A stretch of DNA of 64,000 nt, taken from positions 73,303 through 137,302 of the forward strand of contig CAXTYC010000010.1 in NCBI GenBank assembly GCA_964248365.1. Direction: 5' to 3'. The notes below the pieces were generated by a model. That model saw nothing but the letters and a program-made list of their open reading frames with translations, searched no databases and was not told where the DNA came from. Below are positions 2,937 to 63,827 of this stretch, piece by piece. Positions within the stretch are counted from its first letter, which is position 1, and the number at the start of each line of letters is the position of its first letter. This DNA is from an uncultured Chroococcidiopsis sp. GTDB lineage: Bacteria > Cyanobacteriota > Cyanobacteriia > Cyanobacteriales > Chroococcidiopsidaceae. Both the position numbers and the translations under genes were made by a program.

Positions 2937-5900
2937 CTAATTAACTTTGAATTGACTAGCACTAGTTTGCAGTTCTTGCGCCAGTGCTAGCAGTTCCTTA
3001 AATGAGGCTGAAACGATTGTTGCATCGTTTGAGGTTTGACTAGCACTTGCTGCTACATCAGTCATAGCAACAGTCACAACTTGTGAAACTTGTGATTGCG
3101 CTGCTGCTGCTTGGCCGATCGCTGCCACTGATTCACTAATTTGTTGGCTAACAAAGGTAATTTTATTCAGATTCTGACGAGTCTCATCTACTAATTTTGT
3201 TCCAACAACTACTTGCTCTTTACCAGCTTCCATCGCTGCCACCACTTCGTTGGTTTCTTTTTGAATGTTTGCGATCAAATTTTCGATTTCTGCTGTTGCT
3301 TCGGCTGATTGACGGGCAAGAGTTCGCACTTCGTCGGCTAATACAGCAAATCCTCGCCCTTCATCCCCAGCACGAGCTGCTTCAATCGAAGCTTTCAATG
3401 CTAGCAAGTTGGTTTGAGCTGCAAATCTGCCGATCAAGCTCACCACTTTAGAAATCTTTTGTGAAGATTCACCCAATTGCTTGACTTTTTTCGATGTTTC
3501 TGTTATACTTTCCCGAATTGCCATAATTCCATCAACGGTGCGGTTCATTGCCGCATCCCCAGCTGCTACTGTCGTAGTTGCCTCCTGGACGGCTGCTTCT
3601 GCTATGGCAGCACTTTGCGTCACTGCGCGAATCGAAAGAGACATTTCTTGAATTCGATCTAGTGTTGATGCAATTTCTTCGGCTTGCCGTAGTGCTTCAA
3701 TAGACAGTTCTTGTACTGCACCTTCGTTGCTGGTGGTGGTGGATGTGACTTGTTGTGCCGCTGCTTGCACTTGGCTGACAATATTGCGTAAGTTGTTAAT
3801 CGTGGCGTTGTAGGAGTCAGCGATCGTACCAATTTCATCTTCAGTCACGCTGGCACGGATAGTAAGGTCGCCTTTATTAACAGGGTCAACTTCCATCAGC
3901 AATTCCAAGGCGCGACGCTGGAGTAGTTCTTTGGCACTCTTTTGCTGTTCGAGTAGGTGGAAGCGATCTAAAGCAAGTCCCACTTGCGTGGCAAGCTGGG
4001 CAAATAAATCAATTTCTGCCTGTTGCCATGCTCTTGGTGCAGAACACTGATGGGCGATCAATAAGCCTAGTAGCTTTCCTGCTTGCAAAATTGGTGCTAC
4101 TAAATTGGCTTTAACCTCAAATGGTTCAAGTTGTTTGATGTGACACGGGGTTAGACCTGCTTTGTAAATATTCTCAGTAGCCCCGATGCGACCTGCGCGA
4201 TACTTTTCTACATATCTATCAGCAAAACAGGGATCGGCAATTTTGGCTCCTAAAGCGCGAGGGAAACCACTGGCAACAGATTCAGCAATTACAGTGCCTT
4301 GCCAATTTTCATCAAAGCTGTAAACGACGACGCGATCGCTATTAATTGCTTTTCGGATTTGGGAGACAGCAGTATCAAAAATTTCTTTGGGTTGTGCTGT
4401 TTGCGCCAGATGTACAGTAATATCTTTAATCATCTGTGCGCGCTTGGCTTCTGTTTGCTGCTGTTCTAGTAAGCTCTCTCGGTCTAAAATCAGTCCCAGT
4501 TGACTTGCTAACTGTCGCAGAAAATCGATTTCTGACTGCTGCCACTCATGGGGTGCATTGCAGTGATGGGCAATTAGCAAACCATAAAGTTGGTCGTTTT
4601 TTACAATTGGTGTTACCAAATTGGCTTTGATTTGCAGTCGTTCCATTAACTTTTGATGCTCAGGGTGGAAACCCGCACTCATCACATTATTTGTAGGAAC
4701 GACACGACCTTTTCTGTATGCTTGTATGAGATCATCTCCAATACAAGAGTCTTCAATTTTGTCATTCAGAGCGCTCCGCCAACCAGGTAGCACAGATTCA
4801 TTGGCAATGTAGCCGCTCCAGTCTAGGTTGAAGCGATAGATGACTACTCGCTCTACCTTTAGGAGTTCTCTAGCTCCTGTAAGTGCTTTGTTGAAAACAG
4901 ATTCCAAGCCTTGAGAGTCATTTGTACCGGAATTGCCAATATCAGCAAAGAATCTAGCTCGTTCTGCTTCGAGTTGACGGGCTTCCAGGTTAGCCTCAAT
5001 ATTAGCCGCCATCTGATTCAATTCTTGGGAAAGAATGCCAATTTCGTCATGACTGTGGGTGGTTTCTAGTCTAATACCTTCTTCTCCGACTCCGACAGCT
5101 TGAGCAAAACTAGCTAAACGTTTCAATGGGCGAGAAAATGAGCCAGCAATTGGAATACCAACTAGACCAACCAACAGCAATATACCTCCCCCAATGCCAT
5201 AAGCTGTGAGTTGCTGATTTCTTAAGCTAGTATCTACTTCCTTGAGAGACTGACCGATATAGGCTATGCCTACAGGCTTTGCTTGGTCAGGATTGAGTTC
5301 CTTTTGATGGTCATACAAGGGGCTATAGAATGTTAGATACGGCTGACCTATAATATTTGTTTGACCGCTAAACTCTTGCCCCTGATTGAGGACTTTCTCT
5401 GCTACCTCTCTGGCAACCCGCGTTCCCACCGCCCTAGTTTTACCGTCTGTGTAGGGAACATTCGTAGCTACCCGCCAGTCGTGAGCAAATACAGTCGCAC
5501 TAGGTAGTTTGTAATTTTGCGAAAATTTGTCCACTAAGACGTAGTTGCGGTTTTGCACTGCCCCTACGATGACAGTTCCCACTAGCTTATTGTTGATTTT
5601 GATTGGATAAACAGCCATAGCGACCAAGCCTACTTTTCCTCGGTCAGTGTCGTAAGTTCCTTCGGGGAAGGGTTGCTTGGATTGAGGTAAGTCCTTAGTA
5701 GGTTGTGGTCGCAAACCGATATCTGCCTGTTTCTCTAACCCTAAACGTTGGAGTGATTCTTTTTTCAGCAACTCCATACCAGCTAAAGGGCGTTGAGTTT
5801 TTAATGTGTCTTTCACAATTGGAATATCTGCTAAGTTAATCCCTACTGGTAAAGATACTGGGCGATATTTTGGCTCGGTTAATTCTTGGTTATTCTCGGC

Positions 5901-6455
5901 TGGTAGAGGTGGATTACTAGAAAAATCCTCTGCCAGAATTTGAATATCCTGAGCAACTGTTCTACCCTGAGCATCAGTGAAAATTTGAAAGTTTTTGTTG
6001 CTCTGAGGCTCTCCACCATTTTGGATTGCGAGGAAATTTTGTAAAAAGGCACGACGGGCAGATACTTCACTAGGATTACTCAAATCGATTTTAGTAACTT
6101 CTATTAGCTTAGCCAGGTTCTTTGCTTGTGATTGATTTTCTACTTGTGTCCCAAGAACATACTCTTTTTTAAAGGCTGTCCCGTCCTTTTGTAGAGATTC
6201 TTTTAATGTTTTCAACTGATAGTCTTTATTAAGAGTAACTAACCCTTGGGTAACAGCAATCGTAGGCAGGGCAGCACTAATCATTAAAATAAGAGTGAGT
6301 TTAGTACGAAAGTTTAGGTGATTCCAAGGTTGAGTCAGGGACTGTAAAAAAGAAGAAGGCTTACTGGGTTTTTGTTGTGGTGGTAACTTTGATTCTGGTA
6401 ATTTTGGATCTGAATTTGATACTTGGATAGGTTTTTTGATCGGATAATCTAACAT
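2937..6455 (-). CDS. pixJ: Photoreceptor methyl-accepting protein (PixJ-like): TM, Cache-like periplasmic domain, TM, HAMP, 2x cyanobacteriochrome GAF, HAMP, MCP signalling domain
   Basis: GAF2 has DPCF and TPCH (dual-Cys DXCF type). MCP tip [34 protein letters not shown] at 6455 (MLDYP) preferred over the GTG at 6479. Confidence 0.88.
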
Positions 6456-6501
6456 GGCGGTTACTCTAAAACTTTTCACTTCAAAGCGGGAACTTGTCTT
6501 G

Positions 6502-6664
6502 TAGGGGCTGGGGGCTAGGGGCTAGGGACTAGGGGAGGACAAGGGGACAAGGGGACAAGGGGGAGATGGACAAGATAAAGAATTCACTATTGTGACTACT
6601 GACTACTGACTACTGACTCCTTTTCCCTTTTCCCTTCTAACCTTTAGCCCCTAGCCTCTAACCC
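6502..6664. repeat. STRR heptamer tandem repeats (ggggcta, ggacaag, tgactac, ccctag units)
   Basis: Visible tandem heptamers between the two MCP genes. Confidence 0.85.
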
Positions 6665-9600
6665 CTAACTAACTTTGAATTGACTGGCGCTAGTTTGCAG
6701 TTCTTGCGCCAGTGCTAGCAGTTCCTTAAATGAGGCTGAAACGACTGTCGCTTCGTTGGAAGTTTGATTTGCGATCGCCGCTACATCAGTCATCGTAGTC
6801 GTCACCATCTGTGAAGCTTGCGATTGTGCACTCGCCGCCGTTGCGATCGCACCTACTAATTCACTAATCTGTTGACTGACTGAGGTAATTTTGAGCAAAT
6901 TCTGGCGCGTTTCATGCACTAGTACGGTTCCCGTCACCACCTGTTCTGTACCAGCTTCCATCGCCGCTACTACTTCGTTGGTTTCTTGTTGAATATCCTT
7001 CACTAGACTTTCAATTTCGGCTGTAGCTTCTGCTGATTGACGGGCTAGTGTTCGCACTTCGTCAGCAACGACAGCAAAACCGCGTCCTTGTTCTCCAGCA
7101 TGAGCAGCTTCAATCGAAGCATTCAGCGCTAGCAAGTTGGTTTGGTCGGCAAATGTACCAATCAGGTTCACCACTTTGGAAATCTTTTGCGAAGATTCGC
7201 CCAAACGCTTGACTTTTTTCGATGTTTCTGCTACTGTTTTGCGAATTGCCATCATTCCATCTACAGTGCGGTTCATGGCTGCATCCCCTGCTGCTACTGT
7301 TTGCGTAGCTTCTTGTACCGCGGCTTCTGCTTGCTGGGCGCTTTGGGTTACTGCGCGAATCGAATTCGACATTTCTTGAATTTGATCTAAGGCGGCTCTA
7401 ATTTCTTCGGTTTGCCGCAGTGCTTCTTTAGAAAGTTCTTGGACTGCACCTTCGCTGCTAGTGGTGGTTGATGCTACTTGTTTTGCCGCTGCTTGCACTT
7501 GGGTAACAATTTTCCGCAAACTGTTAATTGTGGCGTTGTAAGAGTCTGCGATCGTACCAATTTCATCTTCTGTCACATTGGCACGGATGGTGAGGTCGCC
7601 TCTACTAATTGGGTCAACTTCCATCAGCAGTTCTAAAGCGCGGCGTTGGAGTATTTCTTTAGCACTCTTTTGCTGTTCCAGCAGCATGGCGCGCTCAAGG
7701 GCAAGTCCCACTTGTGTCGCCACCTGGGAAAACATATTAATGTCCTCTTGCAGCCAAGTCCTTGGTGCATTACACTGATGGGCAATCAATAAGCCCAAAA
7801 GTTTCCCGTTGCGCATAATCGGGGCGACTAAGTTTGCTTTAACCGCAAATTGTTCGAGTTGGGCAATGTGACAATCAGTTAAACCAGCATCATAGATGTT
7901 TTCGGTAGCTTGGACACGACCTTGAGTATATTTTTCTACATACCTATCGGCAAAACAGGGGTCATCAATTTGCGCTCCCAGTGCTTTGGGAAAACCACTG
8001 GCAACGGATTCAGCAATTACTGTACCTTTCCACTTGTCATTGAAACCATAAACGACGACGCGATCGCTTTTAATCGCCCCGCGAATTTCAGCAACAGCAG
8101 TATCTAAAATTTCTTGTGCCTGAATACCTTGCGCTAGTTTGAGGGTGATATCTTTAATTTGTGAGGCACGTTCAGCGGTAGCTTGTTTTTGTTCTAAGAA
8201 AGATAAGCGGTTTAAGATAATACCCAGCAAAGCTGCCAGCTGGGTGAGAAAGTTAATTTCCCCTTGCTGCCACTCATGAGTTTCTGCACAATGATGGGCA
8301 ATTAGCAAGCCAAATAATTGGTTATTTTTGAGAATTGGTGTTACCAAATTGGCTTTGATTTGCAGTCGTTCCATCAAGTTTTGGTGTTCAGGGTGAAAAC
8401 CCGCACTCATCACGTTGTTGGTGGGAACGACACGACCTTTTCTATAAGCTTCTATCAGGTGTTTACTAATACAAGGATCGTTGATTTTGTCATTCAGAGC
8501 GCTCCGCCAACTAGGTAGCACAGATTCAGCCGCGATGTAGCCACTCCAGTCAGGGTTGAAGCGATATACGACTACTCGATCTGCTTTGAGGAGTTCTCTA
8601 GCTCCTCGTACTGCCTTATTGAAAACAGACTCTAGTTCTTGAGATTGCTGATCCTTTGCTGAAGCGATAGCAGAAAGGAAGTTTGCCTGTTCAGTTTGGA
8701 GTGCTTGGCTGCTGACGAGGTTCTGCAACTGAATTGCCATCTGGTTAATGTTTGACCCCAGAATTGCCAGTTCGTCTTTACCTGCTACAGCAATGCGGGT
8801 ATCAAGTTCGCCTTGACCTAATTTTTCCACCGCATCAGCAGCAGCTAGGATGGGACGAGTGGCTCGGTTTGCTAGGTAAGCAGCTACAGCACTTACTACT
8901 AATGCTGCTATTCCAGTTCCAATTGCCAAAGTCAGCAGCAGTTGTCTCTGTGGTTCAAATACAACGAGTGTGTCTGCGCTAAGAATTACATCCCAGTTTA
9001 GATCTGGTAAACCTTCTAGTTTTTCAAAAGGCGCGAAGGTTATTAACTGTTGATGATTGCTACTTTTTTCTATTCCTATTACCGAATCTACCTTATTTCC
9101 TTGTTCCAGTTGCTCAAAATTGGGTAAATGTTTCTTAGCTTCTTTACCTATGTCATCTTTTTCCGTAGCTGCTAAAACTTTCTTAGACTCGTCGATCAGA
9201 TAGTATTGGTTGTCATTGGTCTTGAACGATCGTAGTAGCTGTTCAAAGGCTTTTATAGGCATACGCGCTCGCGCTATGGCAATCGTTTTACCAGTAATAG
9301 GATCTTTAACAGGTGCGGCGAAGAAAATGCAGACATCTTTTGTCAGTACTGAAACTTCTTCGGTAATTACAGGACGACCAGTTTTAAGCACTTGCGAAAA
9401 ATAATTTTGCTCTTTAAGTTTGCCATTGGGAATAGGCTTCCCTTGGGACTGAGCAATTACGTTGCCATCGAGATCGAGAACGGCAATGCTTTCATAGACA
9501 CTGTAAGCTTGTATAACGCGGTCTAGGATTGCTTGTTTTTCCTGAACGGATGTTATCGCCGCTAATTTAGGATCGCGGAACACTGAGTAGTTAGCCACTA

Positions 9601-10054
9601 CCTGAATATTTCCAAACCGCTCAAACATAATGCGGTTAACTAGATTTGCTATTTGAGCGGCACGCTCTTGTTGTACTTGTTTAATTTGCTTAACAACCGC
9701 TTGGTTGGCAAAGTAATAAGCTGTTGCCCCGACCGCTACCACTGGGATTGTACCAATAGCGATCGCGGCAAGCATTGCCTTTGTTCTTAAGCGCATCCCT
9801 CCCCAAAAGGATGACTGTTTGATCGCTGGAGATGAATGCAGTGCTGATTCGTCGTGTCGATAAGAGCCTAGTATTGTAGTTGGTTTTTCTAGCTGTGGCG
9901 ATAAGAGCGTTGATTGTGGTGTTTGAGTATCAGATAATTCATCCCCTTCGGAAGTAGAGCTAGTAGAATGACCGTTGGGAGCATTTGTATATTGTTTAGT
10001 ATTAGAGTCATTCATATTGTTATGACCGGAAGATTTGGGAGATATTTGAGTCAT
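6665..10054 (-). CDS. pixJ: Photoreceptor methyl-accepting protein (PixJ-like paralog): TM, dCache, TM, HAMP, 2x GAF, HAMP, MCP
   Basis: GAF2 DPCF...LTDCH; MCP tip [31 protein letters not shown]; follows cheW. Confidence 0.88.
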
Positions 10055-45791: not shown

Positions 45792-45814
45792 CGCGGTAAA
45801 AGTCTTTTTTTGTT

Positions 45815-45880
45815 TCGCGCATAGACGCGTTCGCGGCTTCTCGAAGAGTAGGCGCTAAGCCGCGATCGTTCGGACGCAAA
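45815..45880 (+). repeat. Short dispersed repeat (cgcgcatagacgc...ggcgctaag type), apparently nested
   Basis: Resembles the reverse complement of 63801-63827 with extra sequence in the middle. Confidence 0.45.
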
Positions 45881-46070
45881 AAGTTTCGCGCCTCCTTATG
45901 CAAGAAGTCTATTGCATTTCTACTTGGCATTGAGCCGAGATAGGTGTAATTTCCTGTAAGATGGTCTGAAAGCTCTTATTCTGTCTGGGTTTGAAAAGTT
46001 GTTACATGAGATTCAAACAAGCCTAATTGACAACGAAAAATCAAGCTTAGTGAAGGCATCTTGCACTTTT

Positions 46071-49994: not shown

Positions 49995-52900
49995 TCATTT
50001 ATACAGCCAAACTCGTAGCAGTGAGAGCAGTTGCTCGGTATCAACCGGTTTAGTGATATAGTCGGAGGCTCCAGCTTCGATGCACTTTTCCCGATCGCCT
50101 TTCATTGCCTTTGCTGTGAGGGCGATCATCGGTAGAGTGTTGAACTGGCTGATTTGACGAATAGCACTCATGGTTTCGTAGCCATCCATCTCAGGCATCA
50201 TTATATCCATTAGCACAATGTCAATGTCTGGATTTTGTTGCAGTTCGGCAATGCCGTCTGTGCCGTTTTCAGCGTAGAGAACCTCCATTTGATAACGCTC
50301 CAGCATACTGGTAAGGGCGAAAATGTTTCGCACGTCGTCATCGACAATTAGGACTTTCTTACCTGCCAAGATGGGATCGTTTTGCTGCAATTGCTCCAAC
50401 ATCAGCCGTTGAGGAGCTGGTAGATTTGCTTGTACTCGATGCAGAAATAGGGCAGTTTCGTCTAGCAAGCGTTCGGGCGATCGCACATCCTTGACGATAA
50501 TTGTGTCACAGATGCGTCGCAGAAGAGTTTCTTCCTGCGGGTTCAACTCTTTTCCAGTGTAGACAATGATTGGCAAATAGCCTAGATTTGGCTCCTTTTT
50601 GATCTGCTCGATCAGCTCGAATCCATTCATGTCTGGTAGCCCCAAGTCCAGCACAATACAGTCAAATCGCTCGGACTTGAGCGCTTCCAATGCTGCTGCA
50701 CCTGTACCAACCGCAGTGCTAGCAACGTCACTATTGCCGATCAGATCGACAATACTTTGGCGTTGGATTTCGTCATCTTCTACCACAAGCAATTTCTTTA
50801 CTGGGCGTTCGACAAATCTCTTAATATCGCTCAAGGACCTGGACAGTGCTTGACTACTGATAGGTTTTTGCAAGTAGGCGATCGCGCCCTGTTGCAAACT
50901 TCGCTGTTGCCCTTCCTCAACTGTCATGATATGAATGGGAATGTGACGAGTGCTGGGGTCGTGCTTCAGGCGATCGAGTACCGTCCAGCCATCCATAACG
51001 GGCAGGCGAATATCTAACATAATCGCAGCAGGCTTGTATTCTCGTGCCATTGCTAGTCCCACATCGCCCCTGGTTGCCACTAGGGCTTTAAAGCCTTGCT
51101 CTCGTGCCATATCGAGTAAAATACGGGCAAAGTTGATGTCATCTTCGAGGATCAGTAGGATGCGATCGCCTGCTTGAATAGTCTCCCGATCATCCTCAAT
51201 TGCTTGATGAGTCAGCAAGAGTAATTCATCATCGCTCTGCTGCGAGGAGGGGCTAGGGGCTAGAGGCTGGGGGCTAGAGGCGAGAGGATTTTGGATTAAG
51301 TTTTCTCCCCAGATCCTCTGCTCCTCTGATCCTGTGGCCCTCTGCCCCTCTGCTCCCCCAGCTCCCTGCGGTAAGTAGAGGGTGAACGTGCTGCCCTTAC
51401 CTGGTTCACTAACTAAGCGAATCTCTCCACCTAATAATCGGGCAATTTCTCGGCTAATCGACAAGCCCAAACCTGTGCCGCCATACTTACGGCTGGTTGT
51501 TCCATCTGCCTGCTGGAATGCTTCAAAAATCACCTGCTGTTTGTCGGGAGCAATGCCAATGCCAGTATCGGAAACGGCGAAGGCGATCGCGCATTCTGCA
51601 CTGTTAAGGGCTTTGTGTTCCCCACTCCAGCCGCTTTGAGACGGGAACACATTCAAACTGACAATCCCTTGCTCGGTGAATTTGAAGGCGTTTGACAGCA
51701 GGTTTTTCAGCACTTGCTGGAGCCGCTTTGCATCGGTATAGATAGCGCTAGGTAGGCGATCGTCGAATTGGACATTGAAACCCACCTTTCTTTCTTCTGC
51801 TACTTGACAGAATGTTTGTTCTATGTATATACGCAAGTTAGAGAACAAAGTTTCTTCAATTTCGACTGATATCGTACCCGACTCGATTTTTGCCAAATCA
51901 AGGATATCATTGATCAGTGCTAGCAAGTCGTTTCCGGCAGAGTAGATAGTGCGGCTATACTCCACCTGCTTTTGAGTCAAGTTGCCTTCGCTGTTGTCTG
52001 ACAGCAGTCGCGCCAAAATTAGCAAACTATTAAGTGGTGTCCGCAACTCATGGGACATATTTGCCAAAAACTGAGACTTGTACTTGGATGTCGTCGCCAG
52101 TTGTTCGGCTTTTTCCTCTAAAGCTTGACGTGCTTGCTCGACTTGGTGATTTTTGCGCTCCACCTCGCGGTTTTGCAGAGCCAGTAGCTCCGTTTTCTCT
52201 TCCAACTCCTCGTTTAGCTGCTGCAACTCATCGTAGCTTTGCTGCAACTTTTGCTGTTGCTGCTTCAATAGCTCCTCGGATAGCCGTAGTGTTTCCGTCT
52301 GTTCTTCCAAACGTTGATTGCTCTCCATCAGTTCTTCTTGCTGGCTCTGTAGCTCCTCTGTTAGAGTGCGCGACTGTTTGAGCAAGTCCTCGTTTTGCTG
52401 ATATGCAATAATGTTGTTGAGTATAATGGCTATAGTTTCGCTCAGTTGATCAAGAAAGCTCAGATGAATTTCACTAAAGCATTGGAAAGAAGCAAGTTCA
52501 ATTACGGCTAATACCCGATCCTCATACAATGCAGGTAGCACTACGATGTTGATGGGGGTAGCTTCCCCAAGACCAGAACTGATCTTGATATAGTTATCTG
52601 GCACTTCCAATAGCAAAATTCGCTCTTTTTCTAAAGCGCATTGTCCCACCAGCCCTTCACCCAACCCGAAAGAGTTCGCCAAATGCTTGCGTTCGCGGTA
52701 GGCGTAAGTACCAAGTAGCTTTAGACAAGGCGGATCTTCTGTTGTCATCAGGTAAAACACGCCATGTTGAGCAGAAACTAGGGGAGCCAGTTCTCTAAGG
52801 ATGAGTTTAGAAACAATTTCCAAGTTTCTTTGTCCTTGGAGCATCTGGGTGAATTTTGCTAGGTTAGTCTTCAACCAGTCTTGCTGGGCGGTTTGCCGAG

Positions 52901-54318: not shown

Positions 54319-54966
54319 CTATTCATTGCTCAAATATACAATTTTATCTCTTACCCATGCTCGAAATGATTTGAGCAAGGCAATTTCCCCTAGTATTTTA
54401 CTCTGTTCAACAAATCTATTTATGTCAGGCGGGGATACGAGGGGAAAGGCAAGGCTAGACTCGCACTCAACATATTGTCCTTCTACCAATTGATAAAATT
54501 TTAAATCTCGTCCGTTATATCTCCAAAGTTCGGGAACTCCCAAGGCTGAATAAATACCAAATTTGTTAACAGAACTGTTAGTAATATCAATCTCAATCGC
54601 TAAGTCAGGCGGCAAATTTGTTTCTAAATCTAATTCTTGCCTACCTCTAACTGCAAGTTCATTTTGAATATAGTAACAATTATCAGGTTCTATTCCTCGC
54701 TTTACTATTGTGCGCTTTAATGTCGTAGAACCAGCACTTTTAATTTCAATTTCAAGTTCTTCTGCTAAAGCAAAGATCAAACGATCAAACTGAATTTTGG
54801 GATTTTCATGTTCAAACAGTGGAGTCATAATTTCCAGAGTGCCACAGTCATAAGCGAATCTAGAACCTCTGTGTTCACCTGTTTCTTTGAGCAGAGTTTC
54901 AAAGGTTTCCCAGCTGATGTTCTGTAGCACAGTTCTTTGTTCTGCAAGATTTGAGGTAGCAATCAT
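54319..54966 (-). CDS. Uma2-family (DUF820) putative restriction-endonuclease-fold protein
   Basis: ISWETFE, LEIMTP...HE, IEPDNCYY, PPDLAIEID, LGVPELWRY. Confidence 0.9.
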   Translation of the reverse strand: MIATSNLAEQRTVLQNISWETFETLLKETGEHRGSRFAYDCGTLEIMTPLFEHENPKIQFDRLIFALAEELEIEIKSAGSTTLKRTIVKRGIEPDNCYYIQNELAVRGRQELDLETNLPPDLAIEIDITNSSVNKFGIYSALGVPELWRYNGRDLKFYQLVEGQYVECESSLAFPLVSPPDINRFVEQSKILGEIALLKSFRAWVRDKIVYLSNE

Positions 54967-55145: not shown

Positions 55146-56405
55146 TTAACTGAAAATGCTACCAAAAAAGTCAACAGCTTCCTTTAATGTTGCGATGAAT
55201 ACATCAATTTCTGCACGGGTATTGTAGAAAGATAGACTTGCCCGTGCAGTTGACTGGGCTGCTAAATGACGGTGTAATGGTTGGGTACAATGATGCCCAG
55301 CACGAATGGCAACCCCAGCTTGATCCAAAATAGTAGACAAGTCATGAGGGTGAACATCGCCAGCAGTGAATGCAGCTAGTGCAGCTCTGCCAAAACCTGC
55401 TATTTTTGGTTTAGGACCATAGGTGCGAATTTCGGGAATCTTTTCTAGTTGCTCGAATAGATATTGGGTCAATTCTGCTTCATAGGCATAGATTTTGTCC
55501 ATACCTATCCCACTAAGATAGTCTACGGCTGCACCAAGAGCGATCGCTTCCGCAATAGCTGGCGTACCCGCTTCAAATTTGTGTGGCAAATCAGCATAGG
55601 TGGCATGATCCAGATATACATCTGCAATCATTTCACCACCACCCAAAAACGGCGGCATCGATCGCAACACATCCAACTTGCCATACAAAAAGCCTATACC
55701 TGTAGGACCACACATTTTGTGTCCAGAGGCAACTAACCAATCACAGTCCATCTTCTGTACATTGATGGGCATATGTGGTACACTTTGGCAAGCGTCGATT
55801 AAGACTTTCGCACCGTGTTGGTGGGCGATCGCAATAATCTCTTGCACTGGGTTAATACACCCCAAGGTGTTGGAGACGTGTACAATGCTAACTAGTTTGG
55901 TTTTGTCTGAAATCAGATATTTGAATTGTTCTAAATCGAATTCTTCCTCTGGTGTCAGTTCAACAAACTTCAACACCGCACCTGTTCTTTGTGCCAATAG
56001 TTGCCAAGGAATCAGGTTGCTGTGATGTTCCATTACTGAGAGAATAATCTCATCCCCTCGCTGCAAATTCTTTGTACCCCAGCTGTAGGCGACTAGGTTA
56101 ATCGCCTCAGACGCATTGCGGGTGAAGACGATTTCTTGTCTGGAAGTTGCGTTTACGAAGGCAGCAACTTTGTCTCGTGCGGCTTCATAAGCGTCTGTAG
56201 CTTTGGCGCTGAGCGTATGCACACCACGATGCACGTTGGAATTATACTGCTGGTAGTAGTCCCGTATGCTGTTGATAACGAGCAGGGGTTTTTGAGAGGT
56301 GGCGGCGTTGTCTAGGTAAACTAGGGGTTTGCCGTTGACTTCTTGGTGAAGAATTGGGAAGTCGGCACGGATTTGATCGGCTAGGGTTTTTTCTTGGGTG
56401 ATCAT
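55146..56405 (-). CDS. sufS: SufS cysteine desulfurase
   Basis: [25 protein letters not shown]. Confidence 0.96.
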
Positions 56406-56424
56406 GGTAGGAACAGGGGGGAAT

Positions 56425-56460
56425 TTAACGAACCGCAGAGGCGCAGAGGGCGCAGAGGGA
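56425..56460 (+). repeat. Short dispersed repeat aacgaaccgcagaggcgcagag(ggcgcagag)
   Basis: Inverted near-identical copy at 58629-58664. Confidence 0.85.
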
Positions 56461-56464
56461 GTTT

Positions 56465-57829
56465 TTAGTTTGAGGTTTGGCGGTTGATGGTTTTGGTGAG
56501 GGTTTTTTGGAGGGAGGGGAGTGGGATGGTGTTGATGATTTCGGCGGCGAAGGCGTTGACTAGCAAGTTTTGGGCAACCAGAGGATTAATGCCGCGACTT
56601 TGTAGGTAAAAGAGTGCTTCGTCTTCTAGCTGGCTTACTGTTGCGCCGTGTGTACATTTGACGTTATCTGCTATGATTTCTAATTGGGGTTTGGTGTCTA
56701 CACGGGCTTTGGGTGAGAGTAGTAAGTTGCGGTTAAGTTGTCCTGCGTCTGTTAGTTGGGCTGCTTTGGCGACAAATACTCTACCATTGAATACTGTGTG
56801 CGCTCTGTCAGCCGCGATACATTTATGTAGTTGGCGAGTTGTGCTATGGGGATGATTGAGAACGATCGCACTGTGAGTATCTGCTAGTTGGCGATCGCCA
56901 ATCGTCGTTAAACCATTGAGGGTTGTTTCTGTTTGCTCACCTGACTGGTAAATCTCTAGGTTGTGTCGTGACAGTTTCGCCCCTAGTGTAATGGCGTTGC
57001 AGGTATAGCGGCTATCACGCGCTTGGGTAATTGCAGTTTTACCAATGTGAAATGCTTCTTGACTTTCGCGCTCAATTCTAGTATGATTTATAGATGCATT
57101 TTCTGCGACCCAGATTTCCGTAACGGCATTGGTGAAGTAAACCGCCTCTTTTTGTTGATTTGTCTGATTCAAATAATCTTCAATCAAGGTTACACTACTA
57201 CCAGTTTCTGCCACTACCAAACAGCGTGGTTGGGATATAGTAGGTGTTTCGCCCCCTGTGGAGATAAATAGGAGATGAATTGGTGTTTCTACCACCAAAT
57301 TCTTAGTCACCCATACCACAGCCACATCTGTCAATCCGGCTGTGTTGAGGGCGGTAAATACTTCGTGCGATCCTTCAGCTTGAGCTAAGTAATTTTGTAC
57401 CTTAGAGCGGTGGGCTAAAGCCAAATTAGCCAGGTTAGTAACTACCAATCCTTCTGGCAATTGGGCTGCTGATAGTTCGGGTGCATATACCCCATTCACA
57501 AATACCAACCGACTGTTAGCAGCTTCGGGTAGGGTTAGAGGCGTGATATCTGGTAAAGACTGATGAAACGTCTCTACATTATTGAATTTAATTTGTCGTA
57601 GCGATGATAAATCGGTAAAGCGCCATTCCTCATCCCGTGTGGTGGGGAGAGCGGATAGATGTACAATAGCAGCAGCGCGATCGCGTAATTCTTGTAACCA
57701 CGCGACAGTTTCCTGTTCAATTACTTGTATACTCTGCCCGTGAGACTGATTTAACAACTGTGTCAAATATTCATCTCTATCTGACACATCAGTCAAACTA
57801 GAAATTGTACTAGGAAGAATATTCATCAC
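56465..57829 (-). CDS. sufD: Fe-S cluster assembly protein SufD
   Basis: [31 protein letters not shown]. Confidence 0.95.
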
Positions 57830-58614
57830 GCTCCTACCCCAGTTCCAGCTTGTTCTAACACCCAGTCATAGCCACGAGACTCTAATTCGTGTGCCAATTC
57901 CTTACCACCACTGCGGATAACTCGTCCATTCGCCATCACATGAACAAAATCAGGCACAATATAATTGAGTAACCGCTGGTAGTGAGTAATCAAAATCGTC
58001 GCATTCTCAGGGCTAGCCAATTGATTCACACCATTAGCAACAATCTTCAGCGCATCAATATCCAACCCTGAATCTGTCTCATCCAAAATTGCTACCTTTG
58101 GTTTCAACAGAGCCATTTGCAGAATTTCATTCCGCTTCTTCTCGCCACCGGAAAAACCTTCATTTACACTCCGACTCAGGAAAGCAGGATTCATCTTCAC
58201 CACATCTAACTTTTCCTGCACCAACTCATCAAAATCAAAAGCATCCAACTCCTCTAAACCCTGCTGCTTGCGACGGGAATTGTAAGCCACCCGCAAAAAA
58301 TCCAAATTACTCACACCAGGAATTTCCAACGGATACTGAAACGCTAGAAATATGCCAGATATAGCCCGTTCCTCCGGTTCCATTTCCAGCAGATTCTCAC
58401 CTTGGAAAATCACCTCACCGCCAGTCACCTCATAAGCAGGATGCCCAGCCAACACCTTAGAAAAAGTACTCTTACCAGAACCATTTGGTCCCATAATCGC
58501 ATGAATTTCCCCAGAGCGAACCTCCAGATTCACCCCCTTCAAAATCGGAGTTCCATCAACCTCAGCCGTCAGATCCCGCACCGACAGCACAACATCACTA
58601 TTCTCAACAATCAT
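57826..58614 (-). CDS. sufC: Fe-S cluster assembly ATPase SufC
   Basis: [26 protein letters not shown]. Confidence 0.96.
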
Positions 58615-58628
58615 CTCTCTTCTTCTCT

Positions 58629-58664
58629 TCCTCTGCGTTCTCTGCGCCTCTGCGGTTCGTTTAA
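58629..58664 (-). repeat. Short dispersed repeat, inverted copy of 56425-56460
   Basis: Reverse complement ttaaacgaaccgcagaggcgcagagaacgcagagga. Confidence 0.85.
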
Positions 58665-58679
58665 CAAGGTGGGCATTAC

Positions 58680-60116
58680 TTAACCCACACTACCTTCCAA
58701 CTTCAGGCTCAACAACCTATCCGCTTCCACAGCAAACTCCATCGGTAGCTGATTAAACACATCCTTACAAAAACCACTAATCATCATCGAAATCGCATCT
58801 TCTGCCGAAATACCACGCTGGGCGAAATAAAATAGCTGATCCTCCCCAATCTTGGAAGTAGAAGCTTCATGCTCAATCTTTGCCGTGTTATTCTGCACCT
58901 GGATATATGGGAAAGTATTCGCACGAGCATTATCCCCAATCAGCATCGAATCACACTGAGAATAATTCCGCGCCCCTTCTGCCTTGGGATTAACTTTCAC
59001 CAAACCTCGGTAGCTGTTTGCCGATCGCCCTGCCGAAATTCCTTTAGATATAATCGTGCTGCGGGTATTCTTCCCAACGTGAACCATCTTGGTTCCCGTG
59101 TCGGCTTGCTGCATATTATTTGTCAGCGCCACCGAGTAAAACTCACCAACCGAGTTATCACCCACCAGCACACAGCTTGGATATTTCCAGGTAATTGCCG
59201 AACCTGTTTCTACCTGTGTCCAAGAAATCTTAGAATTAACTCCTTGACACAAACCGCGCTTGGTGACGAAGTTGTATATCCCACCTTTACCGTTTTCATC
59301 TCCAGCGTACCAATTCTGCACGGTAGAGTATTTAATCTCAGCATTGTCGAGGGCGATGAGTTCGACTACAGCCGCGTGTAGCTGATTGGTATCGTACATC
59401 GGTGCGGTGCAGCCTTCCAGGTAGGAAACCGAACTACCTTCATCAGCCACAATTAGTGTGCGCTCGAACTGTCCTGTATCTCCGCTATTAATACGAAAAT
59501 AGGTAGATAGTTCCATTGGGCATTTTGTGCCTTTGGGAATATAGACAAACGAGCCATCGCTGAAAACAGCCGCGTTAAGAGCAGCAAAGTAGTTATCTGC
59601 TACGGGTACAACGCTACCCAGATACTTCTGTACTAATTCTGGATATTCCCGCACAGCTTCGGAAATTGAGCAAAAGATCACTCCATCTTTGGCTAGCTTT
59701 TCCTTAAAGGTGGTTGCGACAGAGACGCTATCAAATATCGCATCTACCGCCACGTTAGAAAGCCGCTTTTGTTCGGATAGGGGAATGCCCAGCTTGTCAA
59801 ACGTTTCTAGCAGTTCTGGATCAACTTCTTCTAAACTATTCAGCTTTGCCTTTTGTTTTGGTGCTGAGTAGTAGATAATGTCTTGATAATTGATGGCAGG
59901 ATATTTTACACTATGCCAAGTCGGTTCTGTCATCTTTAGCCACTGGCGGTAGGCTTTGAGGCGGAATTCCAGCATGAATTCTGGCTCGTTCTTCTTGGCA
60001 GAGATCAAGCGGATGACATCCTCACTCAGTCCACGCTCAATTGTGTCTGCCTCAATGTTGGTGACAAAGCCGTACTTGTATGGCTGATTGACTAAGGTAT
60101 TGACAGTTGCACTCAT
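58680..60116 (-). CDS. sufB: Fe-S cluster assembly protein SufB
   Basis: [30 protein letters not shown] at 60116 (MSATVN). Confidence 0.96.
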
Positions 60117-60203
60117 TGGTAGTGTTCTCTTGTGTTCTAGGACTCTCTTTAAGGAGGAGGGCGGTGGCACGGGTTGTTCTACGTCTGTTACAATAAAGAC
60201 GAC

Positions 60204-63800: not shown

Positions 63801-63827
63801 CCTTAGCGCCTTTGCGTCTTTGCGTGA
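63801..63827 (-). repeat. Short dispersed repeat (tcacgcaaagacgcaaaggcgctaagg)
   Basis: ccttagcgcctttgcgtctttgcgtga on the plus strand. Confidence 0.65.

Follow-up and report, generated by a model that had tools for sequence, protein, structure and literature searches.

The sufBCDS operon in a 64,000-nucleotide stretch of DNA from an uncultured Chroococcidiopsis sp. (contig CAXTYC010000010.1, positions 73,303 to 137,302; the window) contains two short inverted repeats, and the genes beside them are strongly skewed in the bases at their third codon positions. We find that this skew is real, that it occurs genome-wide and that it is set by the orientation of the repeat. By its sequence, the suf repeat is an arm of a cassette that encodes a predicted nuclease of the GxxExxY family. 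In our preferred reading, to which we give a probability of about one half, the suf repeats represent solo copies of the cassette arm, and the predicted nuclease would nick one strand at each arm, with a patch then being recopied in a fixed polarity.

Codon skew in the suf operon

The two suf repeats (Table 1) form a 38-nt inverted pair and are 89% complementary. An earlier sequence-only reading of the window had reported that third codon positions change polarity between them, and our recount returned identical numbers. Around the sufD–sufS copy, 31 of the last 31 sense codons of sufD and 17 of the 21 codons after the sufS ATG end in C or A; around the sufB–sufC copy, G or T is the last base of 35 of the first 38 sufC codons (P = 4e-8) and of 35 of the final 39 codons of sufB. 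The C/A-ending run at the end of sufD extends over 32 consecutive sense codons, and the purine-rich tail of the sufB–sufC arm reaches into the start of sufC. A weaker skew of the same polarity had also been claimed for the 3′ end of pfkA; this did not hold, the excess of G/T-ending codons being significant neither over the last 20 codons (14; P = 0.06) nor over 40 codons (22; P = 0.34). An Rfam search at both suf arms gave zero matches up to E = 1.

The skew follows an oriented repeat across the genome

The suf arms belong to a dispersed, non-palindromic repeat in which an ACGAAC head is followed by CRCNRAG words at a 9–10-bp period, with free inner letters. We refer to the host genome of the window as G000 and to its relatives as G001 onward, the comparison set comprising 41 genomes. 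A scan of G000 that was blind to the repeat found 234 skewed segments, compared with 93 and 123 after shuffling within genes, and the intergenic 10-mers most enriched near these segments are those of the arm repeat in a single orientation (for example, 15 versus 0). Within 400 bp of the 31 strongest segments, a same-orientation arm is present in 23 cases and an opposite one in 2; for all 234 segments, the counts are 68 and 8. Among 8511 intergenic 9-mers, the 30 highest-ranking ones derive without exception from arms or their inserts, with z up to 24, and once the arms are masked, the best remaining 9-mer has z = 5.0.

Flanks of the 50 full arms are G/T-skewed on the arm-reading strand in 46 of 50 cases upstream and 42 of 48 downstream, and the suggestion that other copies, once collected and oriented, would show the same skew thus survived. 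For the 24 arms with inserts, the corresponding counts are 22/24 and 16/22. Pooled over 74 arms, the skew at third codon positions is 0.247, as opposed to 0.001 ± 0.010 (maximum 0.036) at control spacers drawn 1000 times with matching for gene orientation, and it lies at 0.21–0.28 in each of the four gene-orientation contexts. The resulting halo has the same strand polarity on both flanks and reaches about 0.3 kb on the 5′ side and 0.6–1.5 kb on the 3′ side; at 66 isolated arms, the decay lengths are 316 ± 26 bp and 643 ± 49 bp, respectively. The sequence-only reading was therefore right that a single G/T polarity holds on either side of the repeat and fades over hundreds of bp, and also that replication, transcription and codon selection fail as explanations, since the skew is alike in all gene orientations and is set by the repeat. 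Type-B arms, a second type described below, act mostly in the 3′ direction (G/T-skewed in 67 of 102 flanks upstream and 82 of 99 downstream).

Several other sequences were considered as the signal. Head-only ACGAACCGC matches that lack word units (n = 30) have G/T-skewed flanks in 15 of 27 cases upstream and 16 of 30 downstream, and GTAG-type hairpin repeats in 126 of 249 and 131 of 255. Single CGCNNAG or CRCNNAG words were rejected, with zero skew at 6274 and 12296 masked sites, as were purine tracts, HIP1, GTAG hairpins and heptamer repeats, which have no or a slight effect. The AGGGGCT repeats lean weakly toward G/T downstream (160 of 252 flanks, mean 0.04). Strong skew segments are also present where no arm is recognisable (G000 C1:342918-344465, C25:11158-11718, C60:11846-13100 and C3:100285-101136), possibly reflecting lost arms or another repeat family.

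A looser pattern counts 101 type-A arms, the type found at suf, and 102 type-B arms dispersed in G000. Solo copies make up 97 of the 101 type-A arms, the other 4 being in close inverted pairs, as are 8 of the 102 arms of type B; neighbouring arm pairs in the genome face inward in five cases, lie in tandem in five and face outward in two. Folding of solo arms is only marginally better than that of shuffled sequences (z −1.0 to −1.9). Type-A arms have purine-rich tails, type-C arms (CGCAGAT) have no purine tail, and the inner letters of arms are specific to each genome. In G000, a sequence-similarity classifier for young copies yielded only one type-A case. Small palindromic inserts (GCCTGGGGTTTAAACCCCAGGG and others) are nested in many G000 arms, such as those at C7:5072 and C14:42719, and the halo persists there. 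Gene calls throughout are the longest open reading frames (ORFs) found by script, so that some intergenic arms were counted inside ORFs. At L327 (G020) and L362 (G009), an arm apparently lies in frame within a coding gene, which we take from its motif to be homoserine kinase-like, and the number of words differs between the two genomes.

The arms bracket a gene for a predicted nuclease

The sequence-only reading had proposed a search for a gene whose presence tracks the effect; a candidate nuclease does exist, the GxxExxY gene being bracketed by repeat arms. TIGR04256 scores above its cut-off in 18 of the 41 genomes, with a single match in G000, and inverted arms lie directly on both sides of 17 of 18 GxxExxY loci examined; at the 18th, the second arm is about 0.8 kb away. 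The left arm of the G000 cassette encodes the N terminus of the protein, which is a member of the PDDEXK_3/GxxExxY family (138.6 bits, cut-off 35) with the GxxExxY motif present. From its fold and catalytic residues, we predict the protein to be a PD-(D/E)XK nuclease. Residues E44, D83, E93, K95 and Q107 are invariant in 63 GxxExxY sequences; the first four supply the acidic residues and the lysine that catalysis would require at these places. The structure model, with a predicted local distance difference test (pLDDT) score of 91.5, is a stand-alone PD-(D/E)XK domain, and its best structural matches are BpuSI and Cas4 nuclease domains (Z 8.1; root-mean-square deviations of 2.9 and 4.5). The protein also matches lambda exonuclease (E = 1.7e-3), and a sequence search of the PDB with it gave zero matches. 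The family (PF13366, TIGR04256) is listed with function unknown in a published table (PMC3424549).

Three types of arm are recurrent. All 10 genomes with the gene between type-A arms hold 20–129 type-A copies, versus 3 of the 31 others, in a grouping that uses the arms themselves and includes kin genomes that are not independent. For type C, arms occur in all 4 genomes that carry the gene of this type and in neither of the 2 further genomes tested; their halos have the same polarity, at 28 of 36 copies in G022 and 12 of 17 in G027, and type-B halos share this polarity in 19 of 25 mixed loci. Type-B proteins and type-C proteins each form clades. Further GxxExxY groups with other arm words are seen at L173 (G030), L177 (G031) and L178 (G005), and the gene at L175 (G016:C15:52620-52916) is frameshifted near the C terminus, indicating either a recent pseudogene or an assembly error. 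A RAYT/Y1 gene was rejected as the partner: PF01797 is present in 40 of 41 genomes, and among the 3 of 5 G000 matches inspected, none is arm-flanked.

The valS site at which G000 carries its cassette is occupied in seven genomes, which belong to several genera; in G008, G009, G013 and G015, it is cleanly empty. A G/T bulge at valS codons 151–300 is kept at these four empty sites (0.60–0.68), as with the cassette, which points to precise cassette loss at the arm heads; the values in G004 are 0.32 and 0.56.

Transitions are redistributed between strands near arms

In the vicinity of arms, the log-odds of T over C and of G over A are each higher by 0.35–0.8, whether the sites are two-fold or four-fold degenerate. 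As GC content and purine share hardly change, the shift lies in transitions; neighbouring bases show no strong preference. Our main pair, G016 and G020, is 94.8% identical in aligned stretches, and of 47 candidate arms in the analysed G016 DNA, 12 are shared with G020, 3 are not and 32 have no aligned partner. Near the 12 shared arms, purine transitions on the arm strand number 109 versus 81.5 expected and pyrimidine transitions 48 versus 78.1 (P = 4e-6), with totals of 157 transitions versus 159.6 expected and 62 transversions versus 61.2. The purine-to-pyrimidine flux ratio is 2.18 (95% interval 1.55–3.06), and two pairs involving G009, which are not independent, agree. Total divergence is thus not raised near arms; transitions are redistributed between the strands, mainly as A→G. 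The sequence-only reading had proposed that the repeat directs strand-specific mutagenesis or biased repair. Its first element stands, in that the repeat sets the polarity, but extra error-prone mutagenesis falls away with the unchanged totals.

Near six arms matched in G020 and not in G009, some of them degenerate in the latter, 70 sites have G in G020 and A in G009 and 34 have the reverse. Polarisation by G009 over eight arms, with expectations computed by hand from counts far from arms, gives 19 A→G changes versus 9.5 expected (P = 0.004) on the branch to G020, in which the gene is intact, and 16 versus 13.4 on the branch to G016, in which it is frameshifted. Over both branches, T→C changes number 20 versus 29.5 expected (P = 0.04) and G→A changes 50 versus 47.1. 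Symmetric up-and-down shifts, drawn from the G000–G005 pair near saturation, were refined by this closer pair to mainly A:T→G:C. A diversity-generating retroelement, with its adenine-to-any-base hypermutation, was rejected on the unchanged transversions and total divergence; a context-specific cytidine deaminase footprint, which would consist of C→T alone with a neighbour preference and a loss of GC, on the parallel shift of G/A and T/C, the lack of a strong neighbour effect and the unchanged GC; and a missing endonuclease V as the cause of A→G on the presence of its gene. The metagenome contigs examined are from mixed relatives, mostly 90–99% alike, and are unpolarised. In runs X1, X2, X4 and X7, environmental contig ends at the arm (window 58624-58664) are rich in A and C on either side, as read on the + strand, in a crude consensus, which is what the halo would predict for other copies of the arm.

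Halos in related genomes

We compared 22 suf operons, judging by eye the state of the arm at sufD–sufS. This arm is intact or degenerate in 13 genomes, and in 11 of these, 5–30% of the last 80 sufD codons end in G or T; one exception, besides G030, is G021, with the arm present and 41% G/T-ending codons. In the nine genomes without the arm, the range is 46–70%. At sufB–sufC, the first 80 sufC codons are 70–86% G/T-ending in the seven genomes where an arm or head can be recognised and 39–57% in 11 without an intact arm. In G038, a related element is reversed and the skew is reversed too (G/T 16% in sufB and 31% in sufC). The orthologs, proposed earlier as a check, mostly side with the repeat, the majority of armless ones being unskewed, but sufC is skewed in G010 (0.76), G011 (0.78) and G037 (0.64), though the arm is little preserved or absent there. 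Six genomes have the sufD–sufS halo alone, so the two suf arms act independently; a single composite unit was likewise rejected, as the arms occur independently in orthologs.

Halos were found in G005, G007, G011, G030, G037, G009, G016 and G020, and in G035 at 8 of 10 loci. Counts across taxa cover 80 loci listed of at least 123 found, and among the matches listed, named loci of the Microcoleus group have a halo in 18 of 20 cases, with weaker results for other Nostocales (10/16) and Nostoc (14/27); at the non-cyanobacterial loci listed, a halo is not evident (5 of 11 positive). In G010 (L031-L060), arms are carried by larger elements of two families, which have inverted ends, resemble miniature inverted-repeat transposable elements and have apparently spread recently. 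The mean skew in this genome is 0.015 for 23 copies carried inside larger repeated elements versus 0.123 for 7 solo copies (P = 0.055), suggesting that halos accumulate after an arm has arrived.

A candidate mechanism and its alternatives

Bidirectional origins and resected double-strand breaks yield mirror-image footprints. The halo is two-sided and of one sign over a few hundred bases, and both are therefore excluded; a change of sign at the arm, as a bidirectional origin needs, was not seen, the skew having the same sign on both sides and being gone within about 2 kb. Such a footprint fits a one-strand event at the arm, followed by excision or displacement of a patch and re-synthesis. In the mechanism that we propose, the GxxExxY protein would recognise the phased CRCNRAG words, one strand would be nicked at each arm, and the patch, once excised or displaced, would be re-synthesised with a fixed strand polarity. 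The arm strand may be nicked and recopied in the 3′ direction by an enzyme like DNA polymerase I (Pol I), which would fit the longer 3′ tail; alternatively, the partner strand may be removed, which would fit the fall in T→C. Error-prone Pol I gives 32 A→G versus 9 T→C on the strand made, fading over at least 1.3 kb (PMC3167613), a spectrum that fits an arm-strand nick extended 3′. Halos would be slow to build after the arrival of an arm and would outlast loss of the gene. We prefer repair or re-synthesis of fixed strand polarity, which fits better than a hypermutation hotspot. More tentatively, and with somewhat less confidence than doubt, we suggest that GxxExxY proteins may be widespread repeat-guided, strand-specific nickases, with dozens of arm sites recopied often enough to rewrite the spectra of neighbouring housekeeping genes.

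Several observations weigh against nicking and recopying by this predicted nuclease. A halving of T→C would need recopying about once per generation, a demanding rate, and polarised C→T (21 versus 19.6 expected) is hardly raised, unlike in the Pol I spectrum. The structural Z score is no more than middling, and a fold in common does not establish function, so that nuclease activity is a prediction. G039 and G040, which have the gene and many arms, show little halo (4/8 and 6/10), and the sufD–sufS arm of G030 has none (59% G/T-ending). Conversely, G013, G030 and G037 have halos and no type-A gene. Type-B arms reach at least 15 copies in 11 genomes, only 3 of which have a type-B gene, and no single supported clade unites the proteins whose genes have type-A arms. 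At shared arms, G009, which is 100% complete and has no gene, is as strong as G020 (G/T 0.659 versus 0.651); we attribute its strong halos to recent gene loss, since its empty valS site keeps the footprint of the cassette.

Gene-less halos in G009, G013, G030 and G037 would be expected if the arm were instead a polar site for a host factor (priming, restart or helicase loading) that acts without GxxExxY, the nuclease merely spreading the arms. Such a factor would fix the local direction of synthesis in a genome of otherwise mixed replication direction; large contigs have no sustained skew (40-kb bins within ±0.10), and some cyanobacteria have multiple replication origins (PMC7198777). The up-and-down pattern at constant total is the expectation under fixed replication polarity, and mismatch-repair-defective Escherichia coli shows a 2.3–2.4-fold A-over-T and C-over-G bias on one template (10.1101/346874). 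The non-cyanobacterial loci without an evident halo also agree with a host factor. However, fork polarity would span tens of kb rather than 0.3–0.6 kb, the skew around an origin would be of opposite sign on the two sides of the arm, and other abundant repeats show little or none of the halo. Three arm types of unlike sequence, each tied to a GxxExxY group, moreover share one polarity, and we consider a host factor acting alone unlikely.

Less probable still is that the arms are recombination hotspots, possibly started by the nuclease, at which heteroduplex of fixed geometry and uneven resolution of transition mismatches amount to a strand-asymmetric biased gene conversion. Unchanged total divergence, a shift confined to transitions, decay lengths like those of conversion tracts, genome-specific inner arm letters as in concerted evolution and the presence of MutS all agree with this, but a uniform fixation bias predicts a flux ratio of 1.13–1.28, below the observed interval, and the bias would need to act mostly on A:T pairs. 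R-loops formed by transcription through the purine-rich arm, with deamination of the displaced arm strand, would account for the polarity, the purine-rich type-A tails and the somewhat larger shift in co-oriented genes. We think them very improbable, given that the halo is nearly equal when both flanking genes are antisense (0.225 versus 0.279), that tailless type-C arms still have halos and purine runs alone give about 0.02, and that GC is not lowered and C→T hardly raised. An order of events in which the skew came first, with arms inserting into G/T-rich strands, or was selected through codons or RNA structure, would suit the sufC skew of G010, G011 and G037; it is already largely refuted by the carried G010 copies without a halo, by suf junctions that are unskewed in most armless genomes and by the reversal of skew with a reversed element, and selection by a skew that follows the DNA strand rather than the mRNA, with a purine share whose constancy argues against general G/T selection.

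Relation to known systems

Cyanobacterial small dispersed repeats (SDR), said to have been described by Elhai et al. in 2008, are reportedly short and dispersed with nested insertions, and the arm sequence may already be catalogued among them; we know of no nuclease link or flanking skew for SDR. The REP/REPIN repeats and their RAYT genes resemble our arms in having one nuclease gene between inverted repeats and many gene-less intergenic copies, some of them doublets. They differ in that RAYT is an HUH Y1 enzyme, whereas the gene flanked here belongs to TIGR04256 of the PD-(D/E)XK fold, and in that the known repeats are hairpin palindromes and mostly doublets, whereas the arms are polar tandem words that fold poorly and are mostly solo; a strand-polar halo is not mentioned in the accessible part of that work (PMC3116915). 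The Pol I footprint at the ColE1 origin likewise has a one-strand excess of A→G and C→T that fades about 1 kb from a fixed site, but it concerns a plasmid origin and an engineered error-prone polymerase and is one-sided with raised rates (PMC3167613), whereas the arm halos are chromosomal and two-sided, occur at dozens of sites and leave totals unchanged with little C→T excess. The replichore bias of mismatch-repair-defective E. coli shares the A-over-T and C-over-G asymmetries on one strand at similar size; it spans megabases and flips at origin and terminus (10.1101/346874), whereas the arm halo is local, of one sign and oriented by the repeat. The PDDEXK_3/GxxExxY family, of which the cassette protein is a member, is given no link to repeats in the accessible text (PMC3424549). 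A literature search, with most subscription papers and supplements outside its coverage, found no description of a repeat-anchored strand halo.

A 30-bp intergenic repeat thus sets the substitution spectrum of essential genes over about 1 kb, as in the unbroken C/A-ending run of sufD. Halos would confound analyses of codon bias, expression prediction, horizontal transfer and skew-based origins in cyanobacteria. A large nuclease family of unknown function gains a candidate DNA target, strand and tract length; if nicking is correct, the halo would be a fossil record of the in vivo activity (strand, direction and tract length) of an orphan family. If a host factor is responsible, priming or restart may take place at the arms, which would then be candidate sites for it in those cyanobacteria whose replication has no fixed origin.

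Features of the window and of the cassette

Table 1. Arms, halos and related features in the window (plain coordinates) and in the host genome (G000 coordinates)
Feature	Position	Strand	Basis or remark
Host sufBCDS operon, substrate for halo readout	55146..60119	-	NCBIfam: sufS, sufD, sufC, sufB
Type-A arm, sufD–sufS spacer, antisense to operon, centre of halo 1	56424..56461	+	ACGAAC head and three CGCAGAG words; assigned to family of GxxExxY cassette arms
Type-A arm, sufB–sufC spacer, sense to operon, centre of halo 2	58627..58664	-	Family membership
sufD 3′ end, long 3′ side of halo 1	56465..57000 (outer bound approximate)	-	C/A-ending codons; G/T fraction 0.15 in last 80 codons
sufS 5′ end, short 5′ side of halo 1	56100..56405 (outer bound approximate)	-	G/T fraction 0.31 in first 80 codons
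sufC, long 3′ side of halo 2	57826..58614	-	G/T fraction 0.86, 0.80, 0.70 along gene
sufB 3′ end, short 5′ side of halo 2	58680..59000 (outer bound approximate)	-	G/T fraction 0.80 in last 80 codons; 0.41-0.50 elsewhere
Interrupted type-B-like arm after pfkA, halo not significant	45805..45900	+	Codon counts
Type-B arm (TCA CGCAAAG array) near window end	63814..63827	-	Pattern match
Only GxxExxY gene of G000 (L171)	G000:C42:11152-11577		Between inverted arms, divergent from valS
GxxExxY cassette with type-A-family arms	G000:C42:11159-11608		Same family as suf arms

The window also encodes sufR, beside sufBCDS, and a count of 5561 HIP1 sites marks the host as cyanobacterial. After sufS, at 54319-54966, lies an ORF of 215 amino acids with zero NCBIfam matches at E 1e-20 that presumably resembles Uma2-type putative endonucleases. 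Arrays of the AGGGGCT heptamer occur in the window at, for example, 6503-6537 and 51248-51296, and two tandem paralogous ORFs of about 1150 amino acids (2937-6479 and 6665-10054) are 78–79% alike in DNA over 300-nt blocks.

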